A stretch of DNA of 64,000 nucleotides from Acinetobacter phage Ab15: the sequence record PP763259.1; one strand, 5' to 3'. How positions within the stretch are numbered: the stretch's first letter is position 1; the number at the start of each line of letters is the position of its first letter. A program made the position numbers and the translations under genes. The notes below the pieces were generated by a model. That model searched no databases and was not told where the DNA came from. It saw only the letters and a list, made by a program, of their open reading frames with translations. This document shows, piece after piece, positions 21,559-64,000 of this stretch.

Positions 21559-21983
21559 ATAGTCTCCTTATGAATTGTTTACATAATATGTAGGGATGTT
21601 ATCTGGCACCTCTACAAGTTGAAGGTATTGTAGTATGAATTAAATTTATAAAACACCCCACACCTTTAGAAATTCTTAAAAGTTTACCTTGTTTGGTTGT
21701 TTGTTAAACACAACACAAAATAAAGGTAGAACCTAGAGGTTATCTTTAAATTTGTCACTAGGGGAAATCCTTCAGGGAATAAAAAAGGGCACCACCTTGA
21801 AGTAGTGCCCTAAAAAGTACCCTAGGGAATATTAATATATTAACCCCTGAGGAAAATTTTTTAAGTATCCTCTTATATTTATAGTACCCCAAAAAGTCAT
21901 TTTGTCAAGCTAAAACCATGCCAATTAATCATTGGAAATTTCGATTAAAAATTAAATATTAGTAAATTCTGTAAAAAATACAT

Positions 21984-22066
21984 CAGACCGATTTGATCAA
22001 ATGCATTTTTTAAAAGTGAAAATAACCAGTTCAAAATGGTTTTAACCAGACCGATTTGATCAAATG
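21984..22066. repeat. two exact 20-bp direct repeats CAGACCGATTTGATCAAATG, each containing the 12-bp palindrome ATTTGATCAAAT (with GATC)
   Basis: Copies at 21984-22003 and 22047-22066. Confidence 0.7.
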
Positions 22067-22112
22067 TTCTAATAAGGTAATAAATAGGGTTTTAAATATG
22101 TTTCTTTTTAAG

Positions 22113-22139
22113 TTGACAGAGAAAAAATTTTTTTATAAA
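22113..22139 (+). promoter_or_regulatory. sigma70-like promoter
   Basis: TTGACA at 22113-22118 and TATAAA at 22134-22139, in an AT-rich context upstream of the 22189 gene. Confidence 0.4.
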
Positions 22140-22188
22140 GTTATCCACATCCAAAGATGGTTGATTGGTATAAGTAAGGAGAATTTTT

Positions 22189-22905
22189 ATGTTTAAAGGT
22201 TTTTTAACAGATGTAGCAAAAGAAGCTGGTGTTGGTCCTGCAATTCTTTTAAATCAGTTGCACCAATGGGTTAAGTCTACTGGAAACCAGAAGATTTACC
22301 GTTCTAATGCTCAATTATCTGAAGACCTTGATGGAGTTCTTTCAGTAGCAGCTATTCAACGTCATAAGGTAAAACTGATTGAATGTGGATACATTATCGT
22401 TTCTCACGATAAAGGAACTATTCGTACTACTACTTACCAATTAACTGAGAAAGCTTTGAAATCTTTAGGTGCTTTCTTTGACAAAGCTAAAGACAAAGTT
22501 AAACAAGCCTTCCAACCTAAAAAACCTAAACAACAAGTTCCAGCACAACCTAAAGAGGAACCAGTAAAGCAAAGCACTGAGAAACCAACCTCTATGGAAG
22601 AAGAGTTTAAGAAAGCTGGTCAAGAACGTAAGGACCTCCCTAGAGGTTGCCCTAAAGAACTTCTTAAAGGTATCTTTATGAGTGCTAAGAAAGAAGAGGA
22701 AAAACAAGAAGATGTTGTTTATGAGGACAATTCTGAAGAGTTATTTGGAAAGAAATTCGAAAGTGAAGACTTGAGTGATGAAGAAATCTTTGATAAAATG
22801 AGTAAAACTCTTGGTGGTTTATTTAAGACTATCCCTAATGTGGATAAAAGAAATTCAAACCTTCAATCTATGACTAACTTTGGTAACTTTCGAGAAGAGT
22901 ACTAA
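22189..22905 (+). CDS. hypothetical early protein with a central basic/acidic low-complexity region
   Basis: 238 aa. RBS AAGGAG. First gene of the forward early block. Confidence 0.5.
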   Translation: MFKGFLTDVAKEAGVGPAILLNQLHQWVKSTGNQKIYRSNAQLSEDLDGVLSVAAIQRHKVKLIECGYIIVSHDKGTIRTTTYQLTEKALKSLGAFFDKAKDKVKQAFQPKKPKQQVPAQPKEEPVKQSTEKPTSMEEEFKKAGQERKDLPRGCPKELLKGIFMSAKKEEEKQEDVVYEDNSEELFGKKFESEDLSDEEIFDKMSKTLGGLFKTIPNVDKRNSNLQSMTNFGNFREEY

Positions 22906-29381: not shown

Positions 29382-29607
29382 TGGTTATGAACTGAAGGTT
29401 GGTCAATTGGTTATCTGTGCAGAACAGAAGACAGCAGATTTCTTTCATGGTAAAATTACACAGATTAACGAAAAGACTGTTATTGTAGAAACACATCGGG
29501 AAAACTACAAGTACCACAAATACTCTAAACCAGTGACTGGCTATGTAACTCACCCAAGACGACCTGAACAAGTATTTGTTTTAGGAAGCCCTAAAGAATT
29601 AAATTAA
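29353..29607 (+). CDS. small hypothetical protein with a KVGQLV SH3/KOW-like motif
   Basis: 84 aa, overlapping the previous ORF by 29 nt. Confidence 0.3.
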   Translation: MRYIEMKSINGYELKVGQLVICAEQKTADFFHGKITQINEKTVIVETHRENYKYHKYSKPVTGYVTHPRRPEQVFVLGSPKELN

Positions 29608-29636
29608 AAATTCTTTAAAATATTTTATAAAAGTAG

Positions 29637-29665
29637 TTGACATGGTGTTTTAATTATGATTTAAT
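29637..29665 (+). promoter_or_regulatory. early promoter AAAGTAGTTGACA with a weak -10
   Basis: TTGACA at 29637-29642. The same upstream context recurs at 23562 and 51455. TTTAAT lies 17 nt downstream. Confidence 0.35.
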
Positions 29666-29863
29666 TAGCACAATAAATTAATAATAAATATATTACCTAC
29701 CTTAGATGTGCAACACATCATATTTTTAGGAAGCCTCTAGGCAAGCCAGAAAGAAAAATGGAGAAGACAAGTTTTATTTAAGTCAGGACGACTATAATTA
29801 AGCGACTTTACGTCTTTTTCGCAAAACATATCTTAAAAGTATTTACTAAAAGGAGTTTACTAA

Positions 29864-30523
29864 ATGGCTAATACAAGTCTAGTTGATGGTGTTGTTTTAT
29901 TTAATTCTTTGAAAAACCCAAAGTTTAAATTCGAAAGTCAAACTCGCCGAGAGTTTACAATCGATTTGATTGTGAGTAAGAAAGATGCTATCGCTTGGAA
30001 TAAACGTTTCAAGAAACAGCAAGCTGAAATTATTGACAACCAAGACTTTGTGGCAAAGTTTGAGATGGAAGTACCGTTCCCTGAGCAAGATGAACAGTAT
30101 AAAATCAAAGTAAAACGCCCAGCAGATTATGAAGAAAAGGATCCAACAACCCTTCAGAAAACTGGTCGAATCTTACCAATTCCAGATAAGTATCGCCCTC
30201 GTGTTCTACAGTTGGTTGACCCAGAAACACGTAAATGTGTTGATATTACCTTCAAGGATTTTGGTGTAGGTCGTGGATCTAAAGTAACTGTTCAGTATGA
30301 AGAACGTGATAATGGTTCTTTTGGGACTACAGCACGTTTATCTAACGTTCGTGTTAACGAGTTGGTGAAGTTTGAGACAGGAAACTCATTTGATCAACTT
30401 GGTGAGGTGGAAGAGGTTATGGAAAACCCTTACGCACAAAAAGCAACTCCAGCGCCAGCAGCTAATGAAGGCGGTGCCACTGGTGGTGACCCAAGCCAAT
30501 CAGAAGTTGAAGATCTCTTTTAA
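29864..30523 (+). CDS. single-stranded DNA-binding protein (T7 gp2.5-like)
   Basis: 219 aa with an acidic C-terminal tail ending EVEDLF; a terminal Phe is the gp2.5 hallmark. It sits next to the polymerase and exonuclease genes. Confidence 0.55.
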   Translation: MANTSLVDGVVLFNSLKNPKFKFESQTRREFTIDLIVSKKDAIAWNKRFKKQQAEIIDNQDFVAKFEMEVPFPEQDEQYKIKVKRPADYEEKDPTTLQKTGRILPIPDKYRPRVLQLVDPETRKCVDITFKDFGVGRGSKVTVQYEERDNGSFGTTARLSNVRVNELVKFETGNSFDQLGEVEEVMENPYAQKATPAPAANEGGATGGDPSQSEVEDLF

Positions 30524-30537
30524 TTGGTGAGGTAGAT

Positions 30538-31083
30538 ATGAGTGCAAGAAATCCGAAAAGGAAAGTTTATAAAACAAACCCAAAAATAACAATTTCTGTA
30601 GAGAAGGACCTTCGTTGGAGAGATGTTAAGGATATGGTTTTTGATTCGATAGAACAGGGAGTTCCTTCGGATTTTGAATCTAAAAAACTTGCACAACTAT
30701 CTATCAAGTTACTAGCTGAGAAACAAGGACGTTCTCAGTTAAACTTGAGTTTTTATCCAGTTGTTCGTAGTACCCTTGAACATTTAACCCCTGATGAACT
30801 TAGAAAGATAGCCATTCAGTGTATTGTGAAATGTACTGAGACAGAAGAAACCAGTGAGAACATTGTACCTATTGCTAATAAGGTTGGTGTTATTTATGGA
30901 AGATTCTTTGATTATCGCTATAAGGGAAAACCTTATGTGGTATCTAAGCAAGCTGATCTTTTAGAAGAAGAAGTGGGTGTTGCAAATTTACCTAAAGATG
31001 GTGATCTGGAAGAAAACCAACTGGAGGAAGATGAGCAGTATGACATCATGGGGGCATTAGGACATATCCCTATAGATTTGTAG
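30538..31083 (+). CDS. hypothetical protein
   Basis: 181 aa with an acidic C-terminus. Confidence 0.45.
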   Translation: MSARNPKRKVYKTNPKITISVEKDLRWRDVKDMVFDSIEQGVPSDFESKKLAQLSIKLLAEKQGRSQLNLSFYPVVRSTLEHLTPDELRKIAIQCIVKCTETEETSENIVPIANKVGVIYGRFFDYRYKGKPYVVSKQADLLEEEVGVANLPKDGDLEENQLEEDEQYDIMGALGHIPIDL

Positions 31084-31123
31084 TTCATAGGTTTTTACAA
31101 GGAATTTGCATAAGGAGTTGTGC

Positions 31124-32359
31124 ATGAGTTGTTATGATGGAATTGGTGAGAAGTTGCCAATTGTCACTGACTTAGGTGTTATTGAATATGAATTACCAGT
31201 TTATGGCTCTAAGGATGTTGTTGCAGTTTTTGACTTAGACTTTATTGTGTACTCTTCTGCATGTATGGCTGATCACACATCAATTAAGGTGACATCGAAA
31301 AAGAAAGGTGTTGTCAAGTACTTCAAAAGTAGAACTGAATTTAATGAATTGCTGAGAGGGTTTAATGAAAAGAACCCTGAAGGTAAACTCACTAAAGCGG
31401 ATTTTATTATTGAAGATATTGTTGTTCCCCAGCCTGTATCACATGCCTTAAGAAGTATTAAAGCACGAATTCAAGGTATTATGGAAGTCCTTGGTGCAAA
31501 TAAAGCTGAGTATTATGTTGGTGGTGAGGATAATTTCAGGATGAGATTGCCATTGCCAGTACCATACAAAGGTAACCGAAAGGAAATGAGGAAGCCTACT
31601 CATTTAGCAGAAAGTAAAAAGTATGCTATTGAGGTTATTGGTGCCAAGAGTGTCTACGGTAGGGAGGCTGACGATGTGGTAACACAACGAGCCGTTCAGA
31701 TTAGAAAGCAAGGAGCTAAAGCTATTCTGATTGGCGAGGATAAAGATGCTTATGGTACATTTAATATCTACACTTATAACCCAAAAAAGGATTTTGAGCC
31801 TTTCTTCATAGGTGAATCCCCTTCTGTTTGGAGCACAAGTTTCATTGGTCACATAGACACAATTGAAAAGGTATCCATAGATAAGAATACAGGGAAAGAA
31901 AAAATCACTTACGATTATAAAGGTTGTGGCCTAGCATGGAAATGCTATCAGATTGCCACAGGGGATGATGCAGATGGTTACCACTTCTTAGATATTGCCA
32001 AGAGATTATATTGTGATAAACATGGAGTCAGTCTAATGGCAGCAGCTAAGAAGATTCAACTCGATAGGGTGGGTTTAGTGGAAAAACTAAACAATGCCAA
32101 GGAAGAAAAAGAGTTGTGGGAAATTCTCTTAGAGCATTCAAAAAAATATTATGGGGAAGAGCCTTTCGAATATACAGACCACAATGGTATTAAACACACA
32201 ACAGATTATATAGGTGTTCTTAACTTATACTATCACTGTGTGCATATGAGATTGTCAGTCGCTGATGACAATACCTTCTACACCATCTTGAGAAAACATG
32301 GATTGTATGATGGTCCGTTTAATCCAGAAGTTGAATATTGTTATTTGTTCGAAAAGTAA
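31124..32359 (+). CDS. 5'-3' exonuclease / flap endonuclease (FEN family; T5 D15 or T4 RNase H-like)
   Basis: The ATG at 31124 is 6 nt after AAGGAG. N-terminal VAVFDLDFIVYSSA. Central motif GREADDVVTQRAV...ILIGEDKDAYG matches the FEN motif GxEADDvI...S.DKD. Confidence 0.6.
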   Translation: MSCYDGIGEKLPIVTDLGVIEYELPVYGSKDVVAVFDLDFIVYSSACMADHTSIKVTSKKKGVVKYFKSRTEFNELLRGFNEKNPEGKLTKADFIIEDIVVPQPVSHALRSIKARIQGIMEVLGANKAEYYVGGEDNFRMRLPLPVPYKGNRKEMRKPTHLAESKKYAIEVIGAKSVYGREADDVVTQRAVQIRKQGAKAILIGEDKDAYGTFNIYTYNPKKDFEPFFIGESPSVWSTSFIGHIDTIEKVSIDKNTGKEKITYDYKGCGLAWKCYQIATGDDADGYHFLDIAKRLYCDKHGVSLMAAAKKIQLDRVGLVEKLNNAKEEKELWEILLEHSKKYYGEEPFEYTDHNGIKHTTDYIGVLNLYYHCVHMRLSVADDNTFYTILRKHGLYDGPFNPEVEYCYLFEK

Positions 32360-52780: not shown

Positions 52781-52817
52781 AAACCCCTAAAGGAATTCCT
52801 TTAGGGGTTTTATTTTG
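52781..52817. terminator. rho-independent terminator, near-twin of the one at 16451
   Basis: Perfect palindrome CCCCTAAAGGAATTCCTTTAGGGG followed by TTTTATTTT. Confidence 0.65.
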
Positions 52818-52894
52818 CATAAATTTTACTTGATTTAAAAATAGAATTTGTTTAGAATCTACTTAGTTATTAAGCTCAATAAGAGGATATCTCA

Positions 52895-53788
52895 ATGTAT
52901 AAATCTGTTGAAAATGTTAAAGGTTTGCACGGTAAAGTGGCGATCGTTAAATATAGAAATGTTTCTGATGCTATGGACCACTATAAAAAATATGATGTGG
53001 ACATCCCTTTCAAGCACAATAAAGGTAAGGTTTCAGAGTATCGTGGTGGTCATCATAGTACTGATTGGACAGGTTTTAGTGATCAACGTCACTTTGAACA
53101 AACTATGCTTCATGGTGATAAAATCAAAGCGATTGAGATTGAAGAAATTCAAGCACCAGAAGTTAAGGTTGAGTCACGTAAACGTAAACGCCATAAAGGG
53201 CCTATCGGTGATACTTTAGATATTCATGCAGTATATCGTGGTGAATTGGATCGTGCATGGACCTATACCAAACGTGATATGCATGATGGTGGTATGAAAA
53301 ACATCACCCTCCTAATTAACATTGGTGATAACTGTGGTATTTCCTCACAGGCATTAGGGTGGCGTGGTGCAGTGGCATTGAAAGTCTGTGATGTGATGAC
53401 TGAAGCTGGCTACAATGTTCGAATCATTGCTAACCAAATGACTGAAGATTTAACCCGTGATGACGATGGTTATGGCTACAATTGCACAACTGTTAAGGAC
53501 TTTGATGAATACTTGGATGTGCCTAAGCTTGCTGCAATCTTCTGCCGTGCAGGTTTCTTCCGTTCAGTAATCTTCACCACAATTGTTTATGAAGCTGAAT
53601 TACTGGGGAAACGTGTAGGTTACGGTTTAGGTCGATCTATCAAGTCACACAGTGAGGAAGGTAAGAAGCTAATCGAACATGTGCACCAAGATGAAGGATA
53701 TATGGTGGTATTCCCTTCGGTGAATGGTAAAGAGGATGCTTTAAATGCCATGAAGGAGATCTTAAAGCCTTATTTAATTGAGGAATAA
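52895..53788 (+). CDS. hypothetical protein, candidate partner of the AAA+ ATPase (possible degenerate VWA fold)
   Basis: 297 aa. The segment ITLLINIGDNCGISS resembles a VWA beta1-MIDAS region (DxSGS), but degenerately. It is adjacent to the MoxR-like gene. Confidence 0.4.
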   Translation: MYKSVENVKGLHGKVAIVKYRNVSDAMDHYKKYDVDIPFKHNKGKVSEYRGGHHSTDWTGFSDQRHFEQTMLHGDKIKAIEIEEIQAPEVKVESRKRKRHKGPIGDTLDIHAVYRGELDRAWTYTKRDMHDGGMKNITLLINIGDNCGISSQALGWRGAVALKVCDVMTEAGYNVRIIANQMTEDLTRDDDGYGYNCTTVKDFDEYLDVPKLAAIFCRAGFFRSVIFTTIVYEAELLGKRVGYGLGRSIKSHSEEGKKLIEHVHQDEGYMVVFPSVNGKEDALNAMKEILKPYLIEE

Positions 53789-53790
53789 TC

Positions 53791-54084
53791 ATGGATCGTC
53801 AAGAGATGATTAAGAAGTACCCTATCGGCTCTAAGCTGGTAGGGAGGTATCTAGGACACAAAAAGTCTTCAAGTGAAATGATTTGTAAGGTTGTTGGTTA
53901 TTCTGCTTTCAGAACTTCGATTTTAGTCTATAATCCAGAAATAATTGGTCATACTGGTACTGGAAGATGTGTAGATCAAACAGGATCTAGAATTTCTGGG
54001 GAAAAGATAAAAGATTTTTATGGTAACCATTGTTGGTATATAGATAGTGAGACCTTATCTGGGTATAGATTATGCAAAAGATAA
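53791..54084 (+). CDS. family B small paralog (YPIGSKL...VGY...YNPEIIGHTG...G.HCWY)
   Basis: One of four tandem paralogs with conserved Cys/His positions. Confidence 0.5.
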   Translation: MDRQEMIKKYPIGSKLVGRYLGHKKSSSEMICKVVGYSAFRTSILVYNPEIIGHTGTGRCVDQTGSRISGEKIKDFYGNHCWYIDSETLSGYRLCKR

Positions 54085-54401
54085 ATCCTAAATTAAAAGA
54101 ATTAGTCAAAAGATTTCCCATAGGTAGTAAGGTGGTAGCAGACAAAAATCATACCTCATCAGAAATATTTGATGAGTGTGGTTATGCCTACGTGGTTGGA
54201 TATGGTTGTGATACCAAGCTAACATATGATGAATTTGGTTGGTTATTGTTGCACCACCCAGACTTTGATGGTCATAGTGGTAATTCTTATGGAATTCTTG
54301 GTGCTAATTTTGAGTTGTACCATGAGGGTGAAATTCAAAAGAAATATGGTTGTACCTGTTGGTGGGATACTGGAGGTCATTGTCAGTTATTGAAGGAGTG
54401 A
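54072..54401 (+). CDS. family B small paralog (FPIGSKV...HHPDFDGHSG...GCTCWW)
   Basis: Tandem paralog. Confidence 0.5.
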   Translation: MQKINPKLKELVKRFPIGSKVVADKNHTSSEIFDECGYAYVVGYGCDTKLTYDEFGWLLLHHPDFDGHSGNSYGILGANFELYHEGEIQKKYGCTCWWDTGGHCQLLKE

Positions 54402-54407
54402 GTTCAC

Positions 54408-54719
54408 GTGTCGGAAGAAAATGAAGTGGAAATTGTGAAAGAATTGGCGAAAAGGTTCCCCATAGGATGTAAAGTTGCCAAAGGTGATGTATACAATTCC
54501 TCTATATTTCACTATGTAGATTTTGCATATGTCATTGGTTATAATATTTATGGTAATGATCACTGGTTACTTCTCTACAATGAAGATTTTGAGGGTCATT
54601 CATCAATTCATGGTGCACTAGTACACAACCATAAAAAATGCTCTATGGCTGAGATTAAAAAGAAGTACGGAAGGCATTGCTGGTGGGCTGATTCAAAATT
54701 AGTAAAAAGGGTGGGATAG
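54408..54719 (+). CDS. family B small paralog (FPIGCKV...YNEDFEGHSS...GRHCWW)
   Basis: Tandem paralog. Confidence 0.5.
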   Translation: MSEENEVEIVKELAKRFPIGCKVAKGDVYNSSIFHYVDFAYVIGYNIYGNDHWLLLYNEDFEGHSSIHGALVHNHKKCSMAEIKKKYGRHCWWADSKLVKRVG

Positions 54720-54723
54720 TAAT

Positions 54724-55005
54724 ATGCAGAAAGTTTCCAGTGATTTAGTTGATAAATTCCCTATTGGATGTAAAGTAATGGTGATTATTGGAGATGGTAG
54801 GTGGAAAACTGGAGATATTGGCAAGGTTATAGGTTATGGTGATACAGATGAGGTTGTTGTACATAATCCAAGTATAGAAGGGCATAGTGCAGCAACTTCC
54901 TGTTTTGATGAGAATGGTTGTAGGATCAAAGATGAAGTAAGGTTAAAATATGCAGGTCATTTATGGTACATCCATATAAGAAGTGTAGAAAGAATTGGAG
55001 GTTAG
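54724..55005 (+). CDS. family B small paralog (FPIGCKV...HNPSIEGHSA...GHLWY)
   Basis: Tandem paralog. Confidence 0.5.
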   Translation: MQKVSSDLVDKFPIGCKVMVIIGDGRWKTGDIGKVIGYGDTDEVVVHNPSIEGHSAATSCFDENGCRIKDEVRLKYAGHLWYIHIRSVERIGG

Positions 55006-55008
55006 GTT

Positions 55009-55470
55009 ATGAGTAAGCAAGTAGAAAACCCTAAGTACAAATCCTTAAAACAACCTACAGGTAATGGTTCATATCGCCCTAAAGGTTATGGCTGGGTGCA
55101 AGTTGATAAGTTAGTAGGTTCTGACAATCAGTATGGTATTGTAGAGAATGGTATCTATAAGGTTGTGGTTTACAATCCTTTAGGTGTAATTATTATTACT
55201 CCAAATGCCCCGTATGGTGACAACACAAGAGAGCTAATTAAGGATCAATATCATTGGGTTTCATTTGATGATGTCTTTAATCCAATACCTGAAGATGAAG
55301 AACTGAAGGTTGGTGATAGGGTAATGCTTAATCAAGACTACAACACCTATAAAAAAGGTTATGTTATGAAAGTAAAAGAAATCAGAAAAGATGGTGACGA
55401 ATTGCTTGTACAACTTTGTAATCCGAGTACATCCTTCTGGGCTTATTCTCATAGAATACGTAAATTCTAA
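55009..55470 (+). CDS. N-terminally extended family A-like protein (KVGDRVML...CNP)
   Basis: 153 aa. The C-terminal half carries the family skeleton. Confidence 0.45.
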   Translation: MSKQVENPKYKSLKQPTGNGSYRPKGYGWVQVDKLVGSDNQYGIVENGIYKVVVYNPLGVIIITPNAPYGDNTRELIKDQYHWVSFDDVFNPIPEDEELKVGDRVMLNQDYNTYKKGYVMKVKEIRKDGDELLVQLCNPSTSFWAYSHRIRKF

Positions 55471-55554
55471 TTCAGTTTCCCTTGAAAACTTGCACAAACA
55501 ATCAAGAAATGGTAATATGCACCTATTAATCAACCAAGCATTGTAGGTGCTAAA

Positions 55555-56019
55555 ATGGCTAAACATTTTAAGTATACTAAACATCTTGAATCACAAAATT
55601 CTCAAACAATGGCATCACCATTTAATAAAGTGACTACTTATGTAGCTCGCTTTTTTCGTGTTGCCTTTAAAAACTTCTCAAGTATGTTTGAGGGTGGAAG
55701 TCCTCAAGATATCGTGCGAGATAGATTTAAAGAGTGGCACGAAGATGTAAACCTTGCAAATAAGAAGGTGACTTATCAAGTTGGTCAGAGAGTTACTATT
55801 AATGATGTTTCTTATTTTGAGAAATACAGAGGTTTTCATGCTGGTGATGTTGCAAAAATTACCAAATTGATTAATGAGGATGGTGTTGAGAAGTTAGCAC
55901 TCTTCAATCCTAAATGGATTACTGCTAAAGATGAACTTGGTTTGGGTTGTGTAATTGTTGATCCTAAGAAATGCATGGTGGAGATTGTTGGTGTAAAATC
56001 TGGGGGTGTAAATGTATAA
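55555..56019 (+). CDS. N-terminally extended family A paralog (QVGQRVTI...AGDVAKI...FNPKW)
   Basis: 154 aa. Confidence 0.45.
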   Translation: MAKHFKYTKHLESQNSQTMASPFNKVTTYVARFFRVAFKNFSSMFEGGSPQDIVRDRFKEWHEDVNLANKKVTYQVGQRVTINDVSYFEKYRGFHAGDVAKITKLINEDGVEKLALFNPKWITAKDELGLGCVIVDPKKCMVEIVGVKSGGVNV

Positions 56020-56260
56020 TGAAGGTCTACCTGTAGATGGTGCTAAAATAGTGGTTAACAACCCTGATGGCATATCCAGAAGCACCTACAACGTAAGAGA
56101 AAACGATGTGGCGAAAGTAGTGGGGAGAATTCATGGTTCTGGTTACAGTATACTAGCATACAATCCTGATTGGAAAAATAAAGAGAGGGATCACGATGCA
56201 TTTACATACAAGGGACCTTGTGTGGTATTGTGTCGCAGTGAGTATGAGGTAATTGAGTAA
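56012..56260 (+). CDS. family A small paralog (DGAKIVV...ENDVAKV...YNPDW)
   Basis: Tandem array member. Confidence 0.5.
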   Translation: MYNEGLPVDGAKIVVNNPDGISRSTYNVRENDVAKVVGRIHGSGYSILAYNPDWKNKERDHDAFTYKGPCVVLCRSEYEVIE

Positions 56261-56583
56261 TGGAAATGTGGGATGGTTATGGTGTGTCAAGCTATGCAAA
56301 AGGTGAAGGTGAAAAGAAGTCTTCGGAAGTTTTTGTAGGTTCAAAGATAGTTATAACAAAACCTGACAGTGTTTCTATTGAAAGGAATGCTCTTAATGGT
56401 GATATTGGGAAGATTGTGTGCATAGAAACTGGTGTTTTTGGAGTAACTAGGTATCTGGCATATAATCCAAAGTGGAAATGTCGTGACGATGGTATGCAGG
56501 AGGATTTTAGATATGATGGATTGTTCATCGTCCTTTCGAGAAGAGAGTTTGAGGTGATTCGATATGAAAACAAAAGTTGGTGA
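56260..56583 (+). CDS. family A small paralog (VGSKIVI...NGDIGKI...YNPKW)
   Basis: Tandem array member. Confidence 0.5.
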   Translation: MEMWDGYGVSSYAKGEGEKKSSEVFVGSKIVITKPDSVSIERNALNGDIGKIVCIETGVFGVTRYLAYNPKWKCRDDGMQEDFRYDGLFIVLSRREFEVIRYENKSW

Positions 56584-56776
56584 TAAAATCAAAATAACCT
56601 CTCTTGATAAGTACAGTTATGCTACAGGAGTAGAAATAGGACATATTGGTAAAGTTGTTGAGGTTTACCCTGCTGGGTGCTTTGCTGAGAATCCGTTGTG
56701 GGGTGAAGGTTCAACAGGATTCTTTAACAATGAATTTGAGGTCTTAAAGGAATCTGAGGGGTTAAACGATGGCTGA
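56564..56776 (+). CDS. family A small paralog (KVGDKIKI...IGHIGKV...ENPLW)
   Basis: Tandem array member. Confidence 0.5.
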   Translation: MKTKVGDKIKITSLDKYSYATGVEIGHIGKVVEVYPAGCFAENPLWGEGSTGFFNNEFEVLKESEGLNDG

Positions 56777-57038
56777 GTGTTATTATTGGGATGTACCATC
56801 ACAAGTTAAAGAGCCTACAATAAAAGTTGGCGATAAGGTTGAGATAGTTGATCCTTGGCAGCTTGACAAACGACTTGGAATTCAGGTTGGGGATGTGGCT
56901 AAAGTGGTTTATGTGGGAAATGATCACTTAAGGTGCAATAATCCAAGATGGAATATATGTGATCATAAGATCGGCAGGGTGATGGGCTTAAATCAAATTA
57001 AGCTGATTGTGAATACTCATAAGGAAGAATATCTATGA
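56769..57038 (+). CDS. family A small paralog (KVGDKVEI...VGDVAKV...NNPRW)
   Basis: Tandem array member. Confidence 0.5.
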   Translation: MAECYYWDVPSQVKEPTIKVGDKVEIVDPWQLDKRLGIQVGDVAKVVYVGNDHLRCNNPRWNICDHKIGRVMGLNQIKLIVNTHKEEYL

Positions 57039-57292
57039 AAGAACCAGAAATTGGCACAAAAGTTGTAATTGTTAATCCTGATGACCGTTCTCGTGCAGAA
57101 GGTATTGTTGAAGGTGATGTTGCGAAGGTTGTTGGGGTGGAGGCTTCCATAAAAAGTTGTGATTTACTACTTCTCTTGCACAATCCTAAGTGGAAAAACA
57201 TGCATGAAGATGTTCTAAGTTGTAACACACCTTGTCATCTTGTATACTTATCTGAATGTGATATTTACGAAGAATGCCTTAAGGGGGATTAG
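57035..57292 (+). CDS. family A small paralog (IGTKVVI...EGDVAKV...HNPKW)
   Basis: Tandem array member. Confidence 0.5.
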   Translation: MKEPEIGTKVVIVNPDDRSRAEGIVEGDVAKVVGVEASIKSCDLLLLLHNPKWKNMHEDVLSCNTPCHLVYLSECDIYEECLKGD

Positions 57293-57294
57293 TT

Positions 57295-57645
57295 ATGAGT
57301 GCTAAGATACCAGAAATACCACCTATACCAAAACCAGAGCCAGAAAAACCTTATGAAAGTTCTCCGATTGTATATAGTCGATTTAATCATCAAAAGTGTC
57401 AGTATGAAGTATTTTCTGTAGGTGAGAGGGTGAGAATATTCCTTTACGGATCTCAATTCCTGAATAATTATGGGATTTACGATGGTCAAGTAGGGAAAAT
57501 TGTAGAGATAAAAAAGGTTGATATGGGGAATGGACGTGTTGTTGCTAAGATTTACATAAAAAACCCACTATGGCACTATAAATTACCCGACAAAGACCCT
57601 ACAATAATGGAGTTTTTGGATCATGAAGTTTCCAAGTTGGAGTAG
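57295..57645 (+). CDS. family A-like small paralog with a Pro-rich N-terminus (VGERVRI...GQVGKIVEI...KNPLW)
   Basis: 116 aa. Confidence 0.45.
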   Translation: MSAKIPEIPPIPKPEPEKPYESSPIVYSRFNHQKCQYEVFSVGERVRIFLYGSQFLNNYGIYDGQVGKIVEIKKVDMGNGRVVAKIYIKNPLWHYKLPDKDPTIMEFLDHEVSKLE

Positions 57646-57745
57646 GGGATAAAGTAGGGAGTAGGGGTAGAGTAGTAATTAAAGTGTTAACTAAAGCGAT
57701 AGTTAAAGCGATAGTTAAAGTAGTAATTAGAAATTGTAAGTTTTA
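57646..57745. repeat. short tandem and direct repeats (AGTAGGG x3; GCGATAGTTAAA x2 flanked by AGTAGTAATTA)
   Basis: Read directly in the intergenic spacer. Confidence 0.5.
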
Positions 57746-57755
57746 GGAGGATTTT

Positions 57756-58076
57756 ATGCCCAATGTAGATTTAGAGAGCTTATTTAGCCTCAATCCTGAT
57801 GATAGACCAGTAGGTTATCAGCCAAAGGATGTTAAAATTATTATAACAGCACCACAACAAGAAAAGGTTATCTTTAAAGGTTGGGACATGAGTAGGCGAG
57901 ATGGTGTCCGTAGAGAGATACCTGTAGGTACTGTGTTTAAAGTCATAGATGTGACCAAGAATGGTAGATTCATTAAAGGAACTAATCCCGATTACACCTT
58001 AAGTGGTATTGTTTTTTATAACACTGAGGTGGAATATGCTATGGTTCCTGTAGAGTTGGTTGAAATTGAGGTTTAA
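57756..58076 (+). CDS. small hypothetical protein (weak family A-like motif VGTVFKV...TNPDY)
   Basis: 106 aa with RBS AGGAGG. Confidence 0.4.
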   Translation: MPNVDLESLFSLNPDDRPVGYQPKDVKIIITAPQQEKVIFKGWDMSRRDGVRREIPVGTVFKVIDVTKNGRFIKGTNPDYTLSGIVFYNTEVEYAMVPVELVEIEV

Positions 58077-58856
58077 AGAATTATTTAAATACTACCTTAA
58101 AACCTACCTTTGAGGATACCTCTAGCATTGCCTACTTGGTGTCTTTGTTGTTTGTGGGTAGTAAACATGAAAATTTAAGTGACTACTTCTAGGGATTCCC
58201 TCAAGGTATATTCTTTGTGCTTAAGTTAAAACTGTACCACATAATGGTTTATTTGTCAATATTTAAAAACCTTGTCAATAGTTCGTTTGTTCATTATTTA
58301 AACTAAAATTAACTAAAGTATTGTATTTTAAGGTAATAAAGTTTGTGTGCTAATATTACAACTATATAACTACCTATATTACTACCTATATGGCATATTT
58401 GTGTATTTCTTAAACAATTAGATAAATATTTAAAATTATTTTGTAAATTGTTTGTAAATCTCACAATAATTTCCTATATGGTTCATAAATATAAGAAAAC
58501 CTTAGTTTTTGTGTGTTTTTAAAATATATTATTTATCAAGTAGTTAATAAACCTTGAAGGCTATGCTTAATTCATCCTTCAATCTTATCCTTCACAATAT
58601 ATTAAAAGGTGAGGGTTATTTTTGAGAGTATCCTTAAGGGAATCCTTCAAGGTAGGTTTCACTTTGTAGATTATATTTGTAAATTATATTTGTAGTTTCT
58701 CTTGTCTTTTCTCTTGTTATTTTTAGCACTCTCTCAAAGGTTGTAATGTTGTTGTAATCCCTTGTAGGCCAATGTTGTGGGGTTTCTTGTAGGATTCCTT
58801 GTAAAAGTAGTAGGGGATTTTTAGAGGGTAGAAGGAGGTTCTGTGGCGAGTTTTTA

Positions 58857-58963
58857 GGGGATAACTCTTAGGGATAGCCTGAAGGTTTCTTTAAGAGATA
58901 ACTTCTAGGTTTCCTCTGGGGATAACCTCTGGGTTTACTTTGGAGATAACCTCTAGGTTTCCT
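58857..58963. repeat. iteron array: four direct repeats of about 21 bp (consensus GAGATAACCTCTAGGTTTCCT) at 24-36 bp spacing
   Basis: GATAAC hexamers begin at 58861, 58897, 58921 and 58945. Confidence 0.6.
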
Positions 58964-59028
58964 GAAAGGTCAAGTAAAGGCTTTTTCGATATTTTTTCAC
59001 ATATACATAGGATGGGCGACTTTAGTCG

Positions 59029-59057
59029 TTGACATTTCAAATGAACTCAGGTAAGAT
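59029..59057 (+). promoter_or_regulatory. sigma70-like promoter TTGACA-N17-TAAGAT
   Basis: TTGACA at 59029-59034 and TAAGAT at 59052-59057, just upstream of the 59085 gene. Confidence 0.5.
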
Positions 59058-59084
59058 TCCCTTAAGATTAAAAAGGAGGAAATT

Positions 59085-59618
59085 ATGTCCTACAAATCAG
59101 AGGTGCGAAACTCTAAAAATTTAACCCTAGAGGGATTACCTCAAACACCATTAACTAACCCATTGGCTTACTCCCCAAAATACTTAGGTAGTGCTACAGA
59201 AGAAATTGACATTATTGTGCTCCTAGATGGTTTAATAACAGACCCTAAAGTTTCCCGTATCAGTGCGGACATTGTGCTAGACACTATGACAATTACCTAC
59301 AAGGCATCCATAGACAATCTATACAAAGAGGTTGTGCTAAAGCACTCACCCAACGGAGCACCAGTAAAGGGACTCAATAGAGTATATTGTCAGATTATCA
59401 GTAAAACGGATGAAAGTCAAGAAGATTTGGAGGATAAACCCGTAAAGTATTACTTTGAGGTATGGCGCACTAATACCGAAGGGGAAATTGTAGAGCAACA
59501 TTGTGCCCAACTTCTGCCACTATTAAACCTGTTATACCCTACAATTCGTGCCTTTAAGGTTAGATTAGGTGGGATTATCCAACAAGTTGACATTGTTGGT
59601 GCTATTCTGTTAGAATAA
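59085..59618 (+). CDS. hypothetical protein
   Basis: 177 aa with RBS AAAGGAGG. Confidence 0.5.
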   Translation: MSYKSEVRNSKNLTLEGLPQTPLTNPLAYSPKYLGSATEEIDIIVLLDGLITDPKVSRISADIVLDTMTITYKASIDNLYKEVVLKHSPNGAPVKGLNRVYCQIISKTDESQEDLEDKPVKYYFEVWRTNTEGEIVEQHCAQLLPLLNLLYPTIRAFKVRLGGIIQQVDIVGAILLE

Positions 59619-59716
59619 ATGCAATTCGACTACAATAATTTGATCTTAAGTCCCCTGAAGGATAACCTAGGGGGATATTCTTAAAGATATTTTAAAAGTG
59701 GTAGATATTTTAAAAA

Positions 59717-60034
59717 TTGTCAGAAAAATCCGAAAAAGTGGGAAAAGTTTGGGAAATTGTTATGGATATGTTTGATTCTTGGTATTCTGTATCAGAGGTG
59801 TATGCGGTAGAGGATAAGCTGAAGGTGGGTTGTATTAGAATGCAAGTATGTGTTGCGGATAGTGCACAGTATGTTTCATACCTCATGTTATGTAAGTTTG
59901 AGGATATTAACCTTAAACATGTCCTAATGATGAAGCTTGCAAGAATAGCCCAGAAAAGAGGAATAAGAGGTAAGTTCATCGTGACAGCAGAGGACTCTTA
60001 TGGTAACACAACAAGCCATGTCATAGATTCATAG
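59717..60034 (+). CDS. hypothetical protein
   Basis: 105 aa. Confidence 0.4.
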   Translation: MSEKSEKVGKVWEIVMDMFDSWYSVSEVYAVEDKLKVGCIRMQVCVADSAQYVSYLMLCKFEDINLKHVLMMKLARIAQKRGIRGKFIVTAEDSYGNTTSHVIDS

Positions 60035-60500
60035 GAATTTTTGAAAAATTTTTTGAAATTTTGAAATTTGAGATTTCTATATTTGGTGCGAAACCAAAAA
60101 AGTGACCCTAAAAATATTCTCCACCCCCTAAAAATCACTCTTCAAAAGTAAGTCTTCTGGAAGCCTTTAAAATCAACCCCTCGGTTCATCGTTATAACAT
60201 TACTATAACAAAAACCTACTAAAAACCCCCTTAAAAATTACCTAAAAGGTGTAGACATCGAACCCTTTTCTGTGGTATCCGTGCACGTTTCTTTATATAG
60301 GAAAGACGAAAGGGTGTATCTCAACCTTTCCATTGGTGAATATCCTTTGGTTCTTTGTTGGTAATGATAAAAGACTGGTTAAAATTCACCTAAATAAATG
60401 ATTTTCTATAACTACTAATAAAAGATTTAATAAAATAAACAATTAAATTATCTTTATTTTCATGTATTTATGATTATTTTTAGTATTATTTTAAAATTTT

Positions 60501-60980
60501 TTGAAGGAAAGTCTTGCAATGAATCTAAAATTTGTTATTATGAACTCATACCAAGCAAACAAGCTAAACAAGCTTAAAGGAAAGACTATGAACAATATGA
60601 TTAACGTACCAGTGGAATTTGTAATTGATGCTTTACAAGCTCGTTATGATGATGTGAAACAACATTGGGGTAATGATGCAAGTGAAGCCCTATGGGAGCA
60701 AGCTCTAGATTTAGTTGAGGAATGCGGATTAGGCAGTGACATTACAAGTCCAAGTGCTTATGTAGACAATTATCTCATTAATGGGGAGTTTATTAGTAAA
60801 GAGGATAATATAGAAGATTGGTTACACAAAACTTCTCATGACGGGTGTTTTGAACAATTGAATTATGAAGGCGATGAATACGACCAATGGCTAGATGATA
60901 ACTTTGATAATTTCTGGCAAGAGTATTGTCAAGATAACGCTCTAATCTATAACGATGAATATGCTTGCTTATCGTTCTAA
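60501..60980 (+). CDS. acidic hypothetical protein
   Basis: 159 aa, follows an AT-rich 500-nt gap. Confidence 0.45.
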   Translation: MKESLAMNLKFVIMNSYQANKLNKLKGKTMNNMINVPVEFVIDALQARYDDVKQHWGNDASEALWEQALDLVEECGLGSDITSPSAYVDNYLINGEFISKEDNIEDWLHKTSHDGCFEQLNYEGDEYDQWLDDNFDNFWQEYCQDNALIYNDEYACLSF

Positions 60981-61017
60981 CACCTAAATAATATTTAATT
61001 TATAGTGAGTATTTAAA

Positions 61018-61215
61018 ATGATTAAATTAAAAGTTGCTTTAATTATAGTTGACTTTAAAAACAAACATTCCTTAAAGTTGAAATTTATCAGTAGAAAAGA
61101 TGCTTTTAATGTTTTACAACAAGATTGGAAGTTACTCAAAAGTGAGGTAGAAAACTTGGAATTAAATTTAAGTTTAATTAAAGATGATTTACACATTTAT
61201 TTAATTGAGTGGTAA
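61018..61215 (+). CDS. small hypothetical protein
   Basis: 65 aa in an AT-rich region. Weak call. Confidence 0.25.
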   Translation: MIKLKVALIIVDFKNKHSLKLKFISRKDAFNVLQQDWKLLKSEVENLELNLSLIKDDLHIYLIEW

Positions 61216-61317
61216 CAGTTAGACAAACGTGCATTGTATTAATAGTGATATGATGCACAATATTAAATGATTCCTTCGGAGTTTTTATTCCATTACATTT
61301 CATAAAGGTAACATAAC

Positions 61318-61461
61318 ATGAAACATTATCAGATCATTCATAATGGCTTGGTTTATTGTGTAGACGTCTATGCATCATCTAAAAGAGAAGCTATTGCACA
61401 ATACAGACAGCAATGGAGTCTTGAAGGAAAACGCATTAACTTGCAATGTTGGGAAGTTTAA
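61318..61461 (+). CDS. small hypothetical protein (47 aa)
   Basis: Open frame MKHYQIIHNGLVYCVDVYASSKREAIAQYRQQWSLEGKRINLQCWEV, below the ORF-track threshold. Confidence 0.25.
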   Translation: MKHYQIIHNGLVYCVDVYASSKREAIAQYRQQWSLEGKRINLQCWEV

Positions 61462-61661
61462 ATATGACATACTCACTAATTAACACGAATAAATGTGATG
61501 TAACTGCAATTGAGGTTATTTATAAAGGAGGTAAACGGCGCATATTCAATCTTAAAAACAAAGTTTATCGTCATGATGCTATAGAATTACAAACTAAGCT
61601 TGAGAATTATGACAACGTGTTCCGTGTAAATTGTCATACAACATTAAACCACTATATATGA
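61446..61661 (+). CDS. small hypothetical protein
   Basis: 71 aa. Confidence 0.35.
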   Translation: MLGSLNMTYSLINTNKCDVTAIEVIYKGGKRRIFNLKNKVYRHDAIELQTKLENYDNVFRVNCHTTLNHYI

Positions 61662-61673
61662 GGATATAACACA

Positions 61674-61880
61674 ATGTTAATCATTAACCGTTACAAGTGT
61701 CCAATATCAGGTAAGACTTCGATATGTGCCCATAAAGTTAATAATATGAAAGTGATTAAGAGCTATAAACCATGCGATGAATCTTTCATCGAAATGCTAT
61801 CGCAAGGACATAAGCAATTTCTATTGTGTGATGTTCCAAATTATAGTATGTTAAGTAAAATCAATATTGTTAAGAGTTAA
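61674..61880 (+). CDS. small hypothetical protein
   Basis: 68 aa. Confidence 0.35.
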   Translation: MLIINRYKCPISGKTSICAHKVNNMKVIKSYKPCDESFIEMLSQGHKQFLLCDVPNYSMLSKINIVKS

Positions 61881-62103
61881 TTGGGAGTATATGAAAATGA
61901 TTAAATCGTTCAGCAAAAATGGTAAATATTATTATTGCAAAACAGATCAAAGTAATTGGTCACAATGGGCATGTCGTCATGAAGATGGATTGGAAACATT
62001 TGCTAAAGTAAGTGTAGCATCTTACAAATTGAAAAGACAAAATGTAATAGATGCGATTGATAATGTTGAAAATCGTTATTCAAGTGATGAGGTGTATAAA
62101 TGA
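61867..62103 (+). CDS. small hypothetical protein
   Basis: 78 aa. Confidence 0.35.
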   Translation: MLRVNWEYMKMIKSFSKNGKYYYCKTDQSNWSQWACRHEDGLETFAKVSVASYKLKRQNVIDAIDNVENRYSSDEVYK

Positions 62104-62396
62104 AAACCGCACATTTAGAAAAAGAGTTTAATGCTCTAATTGATGAACATGAAAAGAAGCTTGAAGCTTTAGCGGAGAAGGTTAGGCAAGAGGTTATAAT
62201 TCCTTATTGCAGAAAGAAAGGCTATGAGTATATATCTGGTATGGGTGACTTCTTTTTTAATGTTGTCAAAACCAATGAGATTATAGACATATGTTGGGAT
62301 AGTACAAATAAGGTTGATAAACTATTGTGCATGGAAATCAATTACAATCATCAATTAGGGGATTATATAAGAACTGTAAGAGAGTGTGATTTATGA
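62100..62396 (+). CDS. small hypothetical protein
   Basis: 98 aa, overlapping stop and start. Confidence 0.4.
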   Translation: MKTAHLEKEFNALIDEHEKKLEALAEKVRQEVIIPYCRKKGYEYISGMGDFFFNVVKTNEIIDICWDSTNKVDKLLCMEINYNHQLGDYIRTVRECDL

Positions 62397-62680
62397 AGAT
62401 TACAAAAGAACATGCATTATTCTATGCAAGCAAGAAAAGTAAGCTTTTCCCATGTGATGTTAGTATTCATACATTGATTAACTCTCAAGTACACATTGAA
62501 AGAAATGTATACGAGAAGTATAACGATTTAGCCATTGTTAATAGTCTTTACCAACGTTGTAAACGTAATGGTTTAAACTTAATAGCTGAATTAAGAGTGC
62601 TATCATGGAATAGTAAAGGTTTAAGGCATCATAGGGCAAGACTTTGTAGAAAGATTATTAAAAAATTATTAAGGGTGTAA
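62393..62680 (+). CDS. small basic hypothetical protein
   Basis: 95 aa. Confidence 0.35.
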   Translation: MKITKEHALFYASKKSKLFPCDVSIHTLINSQVHIERNVYEKYNDLAIVNSLYQRCKRNGLNLIAELRVLSWNSKGLRHHRARLCRKIIKKLLRV

Positions 62681-62796
62681 GTTAAAATACTTACATCTTT
62701 TTTTATTGTCTGAAAATAATTAAAGATGGTATTGCAGTCTTTTATTATTCATGTATAATCAGTCTTAGAAACAACAAACATTGTAGAGATTCCCAA

Positions 62797-63132
62797 ATGG
62801 CTAAATTACTTGTAATTAAAACAACACAAGCAATAATCTATGTTGCAAATGGTAAAGTTACACTAGTTAAAAATGCCTTAAATGGTCGTTTTATGAAAAT
62901 CGCTAAATTTGCCAATATTGTGGACAATTTGATTGTAGCTGCTAAAAAAGCTAATTCTGCTATTAGCCAACACAAGACTTTTTACTATAACATTGAAACA
63001 AAATTAGCTTTGCGTAAATTTAAAAGTCTAGCGAAAATGGCTATTGCATTGTTAGGTGATGTTTTGGTGCATGTAAGCCGTAACTATCGCCATGATGACT
63101 TTGATTTTACATTATTGGCTATGTACTCTTAA
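62797..63132 (+). CDS. hypothetical protein
   Basis: 111 aa. Confidence 0.4.
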   Translation: MAKLLVIKTTQAIIYVANGKVTLVKNALNGRFMKIAKFANIVDNLIVAAKKANSAISQHKTFYYNIETKLALRKFKSLAKMAIALLGDVLVHVSRNYRHDDFDFTLLAMYS

Positions 63133-63171
63133 GAGTATACATTAACAACATTCTATATAAGGATTAACACA

Positions 63172-63357
63172 ATGAGTATTAAACAACATGTAGGAGGTTT
63201 TCTCTTCACGTTCGGTCTAGTAGTAGCTCTAGGGTTATTCTATAGCGCCGTTGCTGAAGGTAATAACCTGAAAGATACACTTTTATCAGTCCTTTTCGGT
63301 TTAGCCCTTGTATGGGCTATTGTAAAGGCATTCAAACAAAATAAACTTAGAGGATAA
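63172..63357 (+). CDS. small membrane protein (two TM)
   Basis: Hydrophobic stretches GGFLFTFGLVVALGLFYSAV and LSVLFGLALVWAIV. Confidence 0.35.
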   Translation: MSIKQHVGGFLFTFGLVVALGLFYSAVAEGNNLKDTLLSVLFGLALVWAIVKAFKQNKLRG

Positions 63358-63362
63358 CCCAC

Positions 63363-63719
63363 ATGGATTTTATTGAGCAACGACCTACCCCCAAAGCGGT
63401 TAGCACTCATTTTCTAGCTGACATAGGCACTACAAGCAACCCACAAGAATCTGTAACGGTGCATATCAAAGTTTTATACCCTAGTGTCATCACTCAGTTA
63501 GGAAATGAAGGGTTGAGCTTTGAAGCATGCCAAAACGAAGATGATCACGGGTACAAGGTCCTATTTTGTGCTTTTAAAGACTATCTTTCCGAAGCTGCAT
63601 TAATCATTAAGTGTAAAGATGATGTAGATAGTGTAACCTTAATTGAATTGGCACTGGATTACATCGGAGCGGGTAACCTCAAATATGTTGTCAGTGAGCG
63701 TTACATTGAAGCTCTATAA
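63363..63719 (+). CDS. hypothetical protein
   Basis: 118 aa. A terminator follows. Confidence 0.4.
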   Translation: MDFIEQRPTPKAVSTHFLADIGTTSNPQESVTVHIKVLYPSVITQLGNEGLSFEACQNEDDHGYKVLFCAFKDYLSEAALIIKCKDDVDSVTLIELALDYIGAGNLKYVVSERYIEAL

Positions 63720-63733
63720 TTAGTTATCTATCA

Positions 63734-63766
63734 AGGCTGCCCTAATGGGTGGCCTTTTTTATTGCC
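63734..63766 (+). terminator. rho-independent terminator
   Basis: GGCTGCCC-TAAT-GGGTGGCC (two G.U pairs) followed by TTTTTTATT. Confidence 0.45.
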
Positions 63767-64000
63767 TAAAATAAATCAAAAAGGTTTTGCCTTAAGGGGT
63801 GTTATGTGTGGGGTGTTAGCACTACTCATAAATACTCCATGTCATATGTGGTTATTTCCTCATGGAATCGCTCAGGTTTAACGGTGGCGGTGGGTAGTAG
63901 GGGTGTATATGTGGGTTATCTCTCAGGGCTATAGTGGCCTTACAGTATTGATAGCGCATAGATATTTTAGGATTTTAGGGTCGAAATATATGCCCCACCC

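Follow-up and report, generated by a model that had tools for sequence, protein, structure and literature searches.

A conserved non-coding control region with a variable repeat array in Acinetobacter phage Ab15: a candidate genome-end region and replication origin

Positions 58,077–59,084 of Acinetobacter phage Ab15 (record PP763259.1; the 64,000-nucleotide stretch analysed here is called the window) hold no gene and are, judging by alignment with nine relatives, a unique, conserved, non-coding control region. Our tentative proposal, to which we give somewhat less than an even chance, is that this 1-kb gap is a control region at the ends of the genome, carrying a repeat array that is a candidate origin together with an AT-rich core. 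Sequence alone leaves the choice between a genome-end role and an origin role undecided, and the two readings are compatible.

The gene-free region, its repeat array and its promoters

The phage is lytic, infects Acinetobacter baumannii and is a myovirus that falls in the AM24 / YMC13-03-R2096 / Herod cluster. We aligned the region across nine relatives, namely five GenBank phages, three Logan contigs and a 97-kb contig ('plasmid') of an A. baumannii assembly. When viral contigs were scanned with an exact pattern for more relatives, YMC13/03/R2096 alone was returned, and a comparison with plasmid origins found the region to be similar to no plasmid. A Logan contig from SRR28813064 equals the window sequence exactly across 52,781–64,000. 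From 57,700 to 58,952 the window agrees at every position (100% identity) with the right end of the Herod GenBank record (MW316732.1), the left end of which matches the window from 58,953 onward. The idea that the window is a rotated Herod genome was dropped, because indels are present and overall identity is 97–99%, exact identity being local only; the HNH gene Herod_00101 is missing from the window.

The gap is flanked by a gene of 106 aa (57,756–58,076, plus strand) and by the first small early-type gene (59,085–59,618, plus strand). Pfam searches with the flanking genes gave no match, and the AlphaFold model of the first downstream gene product, with a pLDDT of 43.6, was unusable. At 1008 bp the gap is the longest of the window when the ORF cut-off is set to 52 or 60 aa, followed by gaps of 630 and 466 bp, which bears out what an earlier note on this DNA had claimed; with a cut-off of 80 aa, two gaps in the window exceed it in length. 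The corresponding gap in Herod is the longest between annotated genes. In the nine relatives its length ranges from 929 to 1041 bp, and in the genome studied here its sequence is found once.

Across 58,250–58,550 the GC content falls to 17–22%, and this is the lowest-GC 300-bp window in the 97.4-kb Herod genome. We regard the AT-rich core (58,235–58,550), on the grounds of its low GC content and its conservation, as a candidate segment for DNA unwinding or for the binding of multiple proteins. In duplex stability at the 100-bp scale the core is only the third least stable segment in the window, the least stable 100 bp being found at 60,401. The conserved block around the core spans 58,100–58,660, and between 58,100 and 58,600 seven relatives show 95–100% identity, compared with roughly 85–95% for most of the flanking coding sequence. 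A-tract phasing within the core was nothing unusual. GC skew tracks gene orientation and shows no switch at 58,077–59,084.

Repeat and TRF analysis placed the array at 58,856–58,966 (plus strand), where a half unit (58,857) is followed by four 24-bp units (58,871, 58,895, 58,919 and 58,943). The 24-bp units are imperfect dyads, GGAGATAACCT-CT-AGGTTTCC, each made of sub-units of ~12 nt; these sub-units come in two types, GGRGATAACCTCT and RGGTTTCCTYT, which are inverted versions of each other. The array can thus be written as 8–10 degenerate units of 11–14 nt with, in Ab15, a super-period of 24 bp. With TRF scores of 96–128, it outranks all other tandem repeats of the window and of the first 50 kb of Herod. 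The iteron consensus given in the earlier note has three matches at up to three mismatches where 0.01 would be expected, and none of 100 shuffled sequences reached three. The array of four iterons described there was recovered, with a spacing of 24 bp in place of the proposed 24–36 bp and with three good units, one degenerate unit (58,871) and the half unit (58,857). The motif is nearly confined to the locus 58,077–59,084, apart from one 16-nt copy at 21,730 that is discussed below. A phage protein probably binds these dyad-symmetric units.

Comparison of the relatives showed that every genome has its own number, order and sequence of units, so the conservation of the iterons that the earlier note had put forward as a check was not found. 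The array segment (58,800–59,000) is the least conserved alignable part among the relatives, with 63–88% identity. In place of the 24-bp dyads of Ab15, the relatives carry direct tandems of 12–13 bp, and the TAACYTYT core alone recurs in their arrays (2–6 times by our count). This variable array is bounded by conserved blocks, CTGTGGCGAGTTTTT at its left edge (58,841–58,855, plus strand) and GTCAAGTAAAGGC. Between the array and the downstream promoter lies a conserved AT-rich block of ~45 bp (GTCAAGTAAAGGCTTTTTCGATATTTTTTCACATAT.CATA; 58,969–59,012, plus strand). It is this block that adjoins the array; the large island of 17–22% GC is ~300 bp off, and the claim that the array sits next to an AT-rich region applies to the former and not to the latter.

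Of the other direct repeats listed for the region, most belong to short two-copy families that individually are indistinguishable from chance. For CTTGTAGG, said to occur three times, we found two exact copies. The second copy of ACTACCTATA is absent in AM24 and in the relative L020, the duplication of TTATATTTGTA is restricted to Ab15 and Herod, and CCYTNAAGG (29 occurrences, 3.7 expected) is enriched throughout the window and is not peculiar to the gap. The motif AGGGAWTCCYTCAAGGTA (58,191–58,208, plus strand) has a second copy at 58,637–58,654, a degenerate one at 58,870–58,887 and an inverted relative at 58,108–58,125. Three of the five matches to GGAWTCCYTNAAGG in the Herod genome fall in this region, to which that motif is all but restricted. 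In the gap the IHF core consensus WATCAANNNNTTR is matched once (58,534–58,546, plus strand), at a site conserved in the relatives; this match is weak evidence, with seven matches to the pattern in the window and 8.5 expected, and hence no enrichment.

Two promoters are predicted in the gap. P_R (59,029–59,057, plus strand; TTGACA-17-TAAGAT), which the earlier note had already recognised as sigma70-like, is conserved in all nine relatives and has the sequence of a near-consensus sigma-70 early promoter; a ribosome-binding site, AAGGAGG (59,073–59,079), and the ATG at 59,085 follow on its 3' side. P_L (58,231–58,259, minus strand; TTGACA-17-TGgTACAGT) is likewise of the sigma-70 type, and both of its hexamers are kept in the relatives, the most divergent one included. 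Its -10 hexamer reads TATAGT in all eight relatives compared (TTGACA-17-TGgTATAGT) and TACAGT in Ab15. P_L overlaps one of two direct repeats of TATTGACAA (58,253–58,261 and 58,272–58,280). Near the upstream gene, an imperfect hairpin followed by a U-rich run (58,090–58,163, plus strand) is a weak candidate for a terminator of the upstream rightward operon. The folding z-score of this hairpin is not significant; one-sided changes in the relative L017 preserve G-U/G-C pairing on the plus strand only, as read from the alignment.

Record ends and a possible terminal repeat

The linear Herod record ends and starts at 58,952/58,953. The Mithridates record was opened 1 nt from this point, that of AM24 at about 58,936 and that of Bestia at about 58,917, and these four GenBank records of the cluster were thus all opened within the array. 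Three of the four begin 15–16 nt 5' of a conserved GTCAAG block, with differing sequence upstream, and when the ends of Herod are joined a perfect repeat unit re-forms. Seven independent assemblies, including YMC13/03/R2096, P577, three Logan assemblies and the 'plasmid' contig, are continuous across the record-end point, and non-redundant cohesive (cos) ends at this position were therefore rejected. Such read-through fits a collapsed terminal repeat or circular permutation. In the literature that we found, it is stated nowhere how the record ends of AM24, Herod, Bestia and Mithridates were chosen, and nothing is stated on the genome ends of AM24, Herod, TaPaz, P577 or R2096. In the TaPaz record, deposited by the same laboratory, the ends are arbitrary and show an assembler overlap of 77 bp. 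For these reasons, the record ends are weak evidence when taken alone.

For the genome-end reading, the argument from position is the stronger one. The Ab15 TerL is T4-type, with Terminase_6N/6C domains, and shares 36–39% identity with its counterparts in Pakpunavirus, Saclayvirus and Felix O1-like phages; on sequence grounds it belongs to a clade shared with phages that have proven terminal repeats. Going by position, in a replicating concatemer the gap would form the joint between the early operon and the end of the long block of rightward genes, and the terminase would cut at the array or just to its right, at ~58,950–58,970. The terminal repeat would in that case take in the conserved AT-rich block, P_R and the first small gene or the first two, and these sequences would be the first to enter the cell, where the host RNA polymerase would transcribe them. 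P_R, a conserved promoter of the host type, would initiate the first block of small early-type genes, with P_L directed leftward. With a length of ~1.1–1.2 kb, the terminal repeat would span P_R and genes 1 and 2 and would end in the next gap (60,035–60,500). On this analysis we lean slightly towards a terminal-repeat boundary at the right edge of the array or close to it. That the array itself plays a role in recognition by the terminase is quite unlikely, and less likely than a role in an origin.

The initiator locus and other readings of the region

A protein that may bind the array is encoded at 22,189–22,905 (plus strand), 36 kb from it. The product matches PHROG families of replication initiation, O-like and DnaD-like proteins (phrog_11233, 2e-9; phrog_678, 1.6e-7; phrog_6493, 8.6e-7); searching its sequence against Pfam and the PDB brought up no significant match. 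In other Acinetobacter phages its homologues carry the annotation 'DNA replication protein DNAD' or 'replication initiation protein', and the candidate is called 'hypothetical' in the records of Herod, AM24, Mithridates, Bestia and YMC13/03/R2096. Its gene heads a module with primase-helicase and DNA polymerase genes, and the protein is 93–98% identical in six relatives.

The array motif recurs at this locus. Sixteen nucleotides of array unit 4 (AGATAACCTCTAGGTT) are found again, without a mismatch, at 21,730–21,745 on the minus strand, in the intergenic space between the initiator gene and its divergent upstream neighbour; this copy is kept in five related genomes and deleted in YMC13/03/R2096. 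Within the initiator gene there are two inverted partial copies of the motif (22,586–22,598 and 22,637–22,649), and the pattern AACCTCTAKGG has nine matches (1.8 expected), a third of them within 0.9 kb of the initiator locus. These copies tie the array motif to the initiator locus and, at the level of sequence matches, are the best new support for the idea of an origin. For the array and the AT-rich core together, the likeliest role is that of an iteron-type origin served by the O/DnaD-like protein, which we place a little below an even chance; it would be compatible with an end function. An origin linked to the array would perhaps be a second one, tied to the formation of concatemers, as proposed for ICP1. 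Taking this a step further, the array might combine second-origin iterons with a marker of the terminal-repeat boundary, such that concatemer-forming initiation and the terminase cut are physically coupled within a single non-coding module, which we consider improbable.

The gap could also be an iteron-type origin and nothing else, with the O/DnaD-like initiator binding the iterons and the genome either having its ends elsewhere or being circularly permuted. Here the 45-bp AT-rich block or the 300-bp AT island would melt, and transcription from P_L or P_R would bring about activation. As expected for iteron origins, at least three direct repeats of ~17–24 bp are found, regularly spaced and at a single locus: dyad-symmetric units with a 24-bp period occupy ~95 bp, and next to them comes a conserved AT-rich block. 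The genome's lowest-GC segment is present as well, and a candidate initiator is encoded, with copies of the unit at its locus. Other features expected of such an origin are missing. The arrangement of the iterons is not conserved along with the initiator among the relatives, the order and spacing of the units differing and the array being hypervariable beside a protein that is 93–98% identical, and the unit copy near the initiator gene is lacking in YMC13/03/R2096. Host factor sites are also scarce, with a single IHF-like match and, at up to one mismatch, no DnaA box in 58,077–59,084 except one overlapping the array; perfect DnaA boxes occur at 22,141 and 22,839. The GC skew does not switch in the gap. 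Furthermore, the DNA beside the initiator gene is AT-rich and has divergent promoters, a perfect DnaA box and a perfect 20-bp direct repeat (21,984 and 22,047) containing the palindrome ATTTGATCAAAT, which makes that locus a competing and more conventional candidate origin. Any origin component is further weakened by the Saclayvirus phages, in which the motif of the array is not repeated at the initiator locus. Altogether, we consider an origin without an end function unlikely. The earlier proposal of an origin or master regulatory region is borne out in so far as the gap is a unique, conserved cis element with an array and the AT-richest segment; the hypervariability of the array, the ~300 bp that separate it from the large AT-rich island and the rival origin count against it, and the option of a genome end had not been considered.

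A smaller probability still attaches to a role in transcription control only, in which a terminator and the divergent early promoters P_L and P_R would be accompanied by the array and the GGAWTCCYTNAAGG motifs as operators for a phage regulator. Both promoters are near-consensus and conserved in all relatives, the array lies 65–170 bp upstream of P_R, and the unit copy at 21,730 is located in the other large divergent promoter region. However, promoter-like sites are no more frequent than in shuffled sequences (10 found, 8.2 expected), and ~500 bp of highly conserved AT-rich DNA far exceeds the need of two promoters. The array is also free to vary among the relatives while P_R is fixed. As the motif is almost wholly confined to this locus and missing from the genome's many other promoter regions, it is not a genome-wide operator.

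We also searched the gap for RNA and protein coding. An Rfam scan at permissive E-values gave nothing credible, with no match below an E-value of 4, and sliding-window folding of both strands showed no excess of RNA structure (z of at least 0 in the AT-rich core, -1.0 to -1.2 for folds of 58,070–58,260, and -2.8, the most negative value, at the edge of the upstream gene). None of the ORFs in the gap is conserved across all nine relatives. These results, namely the lack of a conserved ORF, of an Rfam match and of excess RNA structure, point to cis-acting DNA. One or more non-coding RNAs, such as a short leftward RNA from P_L, or a missed small protein are very improbable, even though P_L is conserved, opposes the local gene flow and is the genome's sole promoter with a perfect -35 to do so, and even though most relatives have a minus-strand ORF of 47–51 aa, since that ORF starts with GTG, lacks a ribosome-binding site and is absent from the most divergent relative.

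Relevance and comparison with known systems

Phages of the AM24/Herod type are candidates for the therapy of Acinetobacter baumannii, and we found no description of their ends, packaging mode or origin in the literature. The positions of the ends and of the origin bear on correct annotation and on the orientation of records, and the packaging mode bears on the risk of generalised transduction, in which fixed-end and headful phages differ. Knowledge of ends and origin would also be useful for engineering these phages. If the array does couple an origin to a terminal-repeat boundary, it would offer a tractable model of end definition in a widespread terminase clade; should it be no more than a hypervariable spacer next to an early promoter, the region would be an ordinary one.

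In concatemer junctions of the T7 type, the terminal repeat is flanked by short repeat arrays and early promoters lie inside the left end. Ab15 resembles this arrangement in having a short repeat array beside the presumed end and a host-type early promoter immediately inside it. T7 belongs to another phage lineage with another type of terminase, and it has a terminal repeat where that of Ab15 is only presumed.

With respect to origins, lambda ori consists of four dyad-symmetric iterons and an AT-rich segment and is bound by the O protein, and in SPP1 (oriL and oriR) one initiator binds sites within the gene that encodes it as well as others about 30 kb distant. Ab15 is similar to these systems in that three to four dyad-symmetric units of 21–24 bp with a regular period lie beside an AT-rich block, and in that copies of the motif occur at or in the gene of a remote O-like/DnaD-like initiator candidate and at a distant site. 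The likeness of the candidate to O-like families is weak, with PHROG E-values of 1e-7 to 1e-9. Points of difference are the 36 kb between the array and the initiator gene and an array architecture that varies among close relatives.

For the genome-end reading, the closest layout is that of PaP1 and of the Saclayvirus phages, of which we compared Aci01-1, Aci02-2, Aci05 and vB_AbaM_P1. The PaP1 terminal repeat measures 1190 bp by run-off sequencing (PMC3652863), and those of Saclayvirus phages 1151–1198 bp by coverage (PMC6318358). A terminal repeat was also called for Saclayvirus with PhageTerm by another laboratory, with the common start GGCAAACCTATGTC. In PaP1 the repeat begins within an ORF-poor stretch of about 1 kb, and both PaP1 and Saclayvirus have a gap of ~1 kb, the boundary, consensus sigma-70 promoters, one or two small plus-strand genes and then a minus-strand block. 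Like them, the phages of the Ab15 cluster are myoviruses of ~90–105 kb with tRNA clusters and a TerL of the common clade, and in all three groups a gap of ~1 kb ends a long rightward gene block and precedes promoters, small plus-strand genes and a minus-strand block. The layouts differ in that Ab15 has 13 plus-strand genes before the minus-strand block, compared with one or two. Searches of the Ab15 region against the Saclayvirus and TaPaz junctions, on both strands, returned only low-complexity AT-rich matches. The terminal repeat is demonstrated in PaP1 and Saclayvirus, and the AM24/Herod cluster is compared with them by sequence and layout alone.

These phages also bear on the function of the array. 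In Aci02-2 and Aci05, six YTATCTAG repeats form an array about 60 bp upstream of the boundary, whereas vB_AbaM_P1 has the same boundary but lacks the array and ~500 bp of the gap. Such an array is hence not required for end formation there, and PaP1 shows no clear repeat array at its terminal-repeat boundary. The array of Ab15 thus probably need not be the end signal.

ICP1 offers a parallel for the combination of genome end and origin that we propose for the gap. Its pac site and termini are located in a 1.3-kb ORF-less space near a predicted rolling-circle origin (PMC7145576), ICP1 having been mapped experimentally by a coverage time course and PhageTerm (PMC7145576, PMC11417361). ICP1 TerL is a distant homologue with 26% identity to that of Ab15. 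The two gaps share no sequence similarity, and in the portions of the ICP1 papers available to us (PMC7145576, PMC11417361) an array of this kind is not described. A coupling of origin and cut has been hinted at for ICP1 and is not known to have been dissected in any phage of the large Felix O1/PaP1/Saclayvirus/ICP1 terminase clade. What ICP1 and Ab15 have in common is that the gap is the genome's largest ORF-free one, and in ICP1, where this gap holds the packaging end, an origin used late in infection has been proposed close to it.

Divergent intergenic region and adjoining gene at 21559-22905

The divergent intergenic region at 21559-22188, which lies 5' of a gene at 22189-22905, carries several origin-like features. 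It contains a perfect 20-bp direct repeat, CAGACCGATTTGATCAAATG, with copies at 21984 and 22047 and a GATC palindrome within the repeat, as well as a perfect DnaA box at 22141; a second perfect box is located at 22839. The region also holds one copy of the array unit, i.e., the 24-bp repeat unit of the ORF-free gap at 58077-59084, in the form of a 16-nt exact match on the minus strand (21730-21745). The gene at 22189-22905 is annotated as 'hypothetical' and looks like an O/DnaD-type replication initiator. Together, the region and the gene represent a candidate for a conventional origin.

On the minus strand of the same region, a promoter-like site (TTGACA-16-TACTAT, approximately 21907-21880) could be read from the sequence, as could a strong hairpin with a T-run (GGGCAC...GTGCCC, TTTTTTATT, 21811-21780) approximately 100 nt downstream of it. 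The site and the hairpin (21780-21907) could specify a short RNA or, alternatively, an attenuator 5' of the leftward operon.

AT-rich element and other repeats

A second AT-rich non-coding element is found at 60267-60520, 5' of the third small gene; at the 100-bp scale, duplex stability in the window reaches its minimum within it, at 60401-60500. The element is 84-88% identical to sequences of TaPaz, B9, BS46, Phab24 and phiAB441, which belong to a different phage cluster, and no match to it was obtained in AM24, Bestia or Mithridates, relatives from the phage's own cluster. In the records of Herod, B9 and phiAB441, it is positioned approximately 1.0-1.4 kb from the record start. The element could be a right-side marker of a terminal repeat, such as the direct repeat proposed to start near the array at 58856-58966 and to run rightward, or it could be an origin element.

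At 57639-57720, two small genes are separated by a short spacer with G-rich tandem repeats, where a 19-mer is present in two copies and TAAAGCGATAGT in 2.4 copies, and where the GC skew is extreme (+0.68 to +0.81). Across the whole window, the motif CCYTNAAGG is enriched approximately 8-fold (29 matches; 3.7 expected). Many of its copies form closely spaced inverted pairs, e.g., at 16452/16465 and 52785/52798, and these pairs look like terminator stems.

Variable elements and a contig labelled as a plasmid

An HNH homing endonuclease gene is present in the divergent intergenic region of Herod and Bestia and missing from the window (20113-22000 versus Herod 58314-60811); this gene varies by presence or absence within the cluster. 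Outside the window, the Herod record (29395-31642) contains an HNH/NUMOD4 endonuclease gene directly upstream of the gene annotated as the terminase large subunit, whose 448-aa product aligns to PHROG profile positions 176-608 only. This alignment may point to a split terminase gene in Herod or to one that lacks its N-terminal part.

The non-coding region of AM24 has a 27- to 29-nt insert, ATAGTGAGGCATTCGCCGAACGGCTCATT, at approximately window position 58806. The same insert lies in frame and in reverse orientation inside gene 1 of YMC13/03/R2096 and P577 (approximately 59150), gene 1 being the first small gene after the ORF-free gap, and a related version is found in gene 1 of Bestia (approximately 59100). 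The insert resembles a miniature mobile element or a hairpin insertion.

Gene 1 is also present, with 87% identity, in one contig of an A. baumannii genome assembly (JBQTVS010000002.1, GCA_052396245.1), along with a matching gap of approximately 1 kb and an unchanged layout of the flanking small genes. This contig bears the label 'plasmid'; at 97,154 bp, it has the length of a whole phage genome and appears to be a phage of the AM24/Herod cluster rather than a plasmid.
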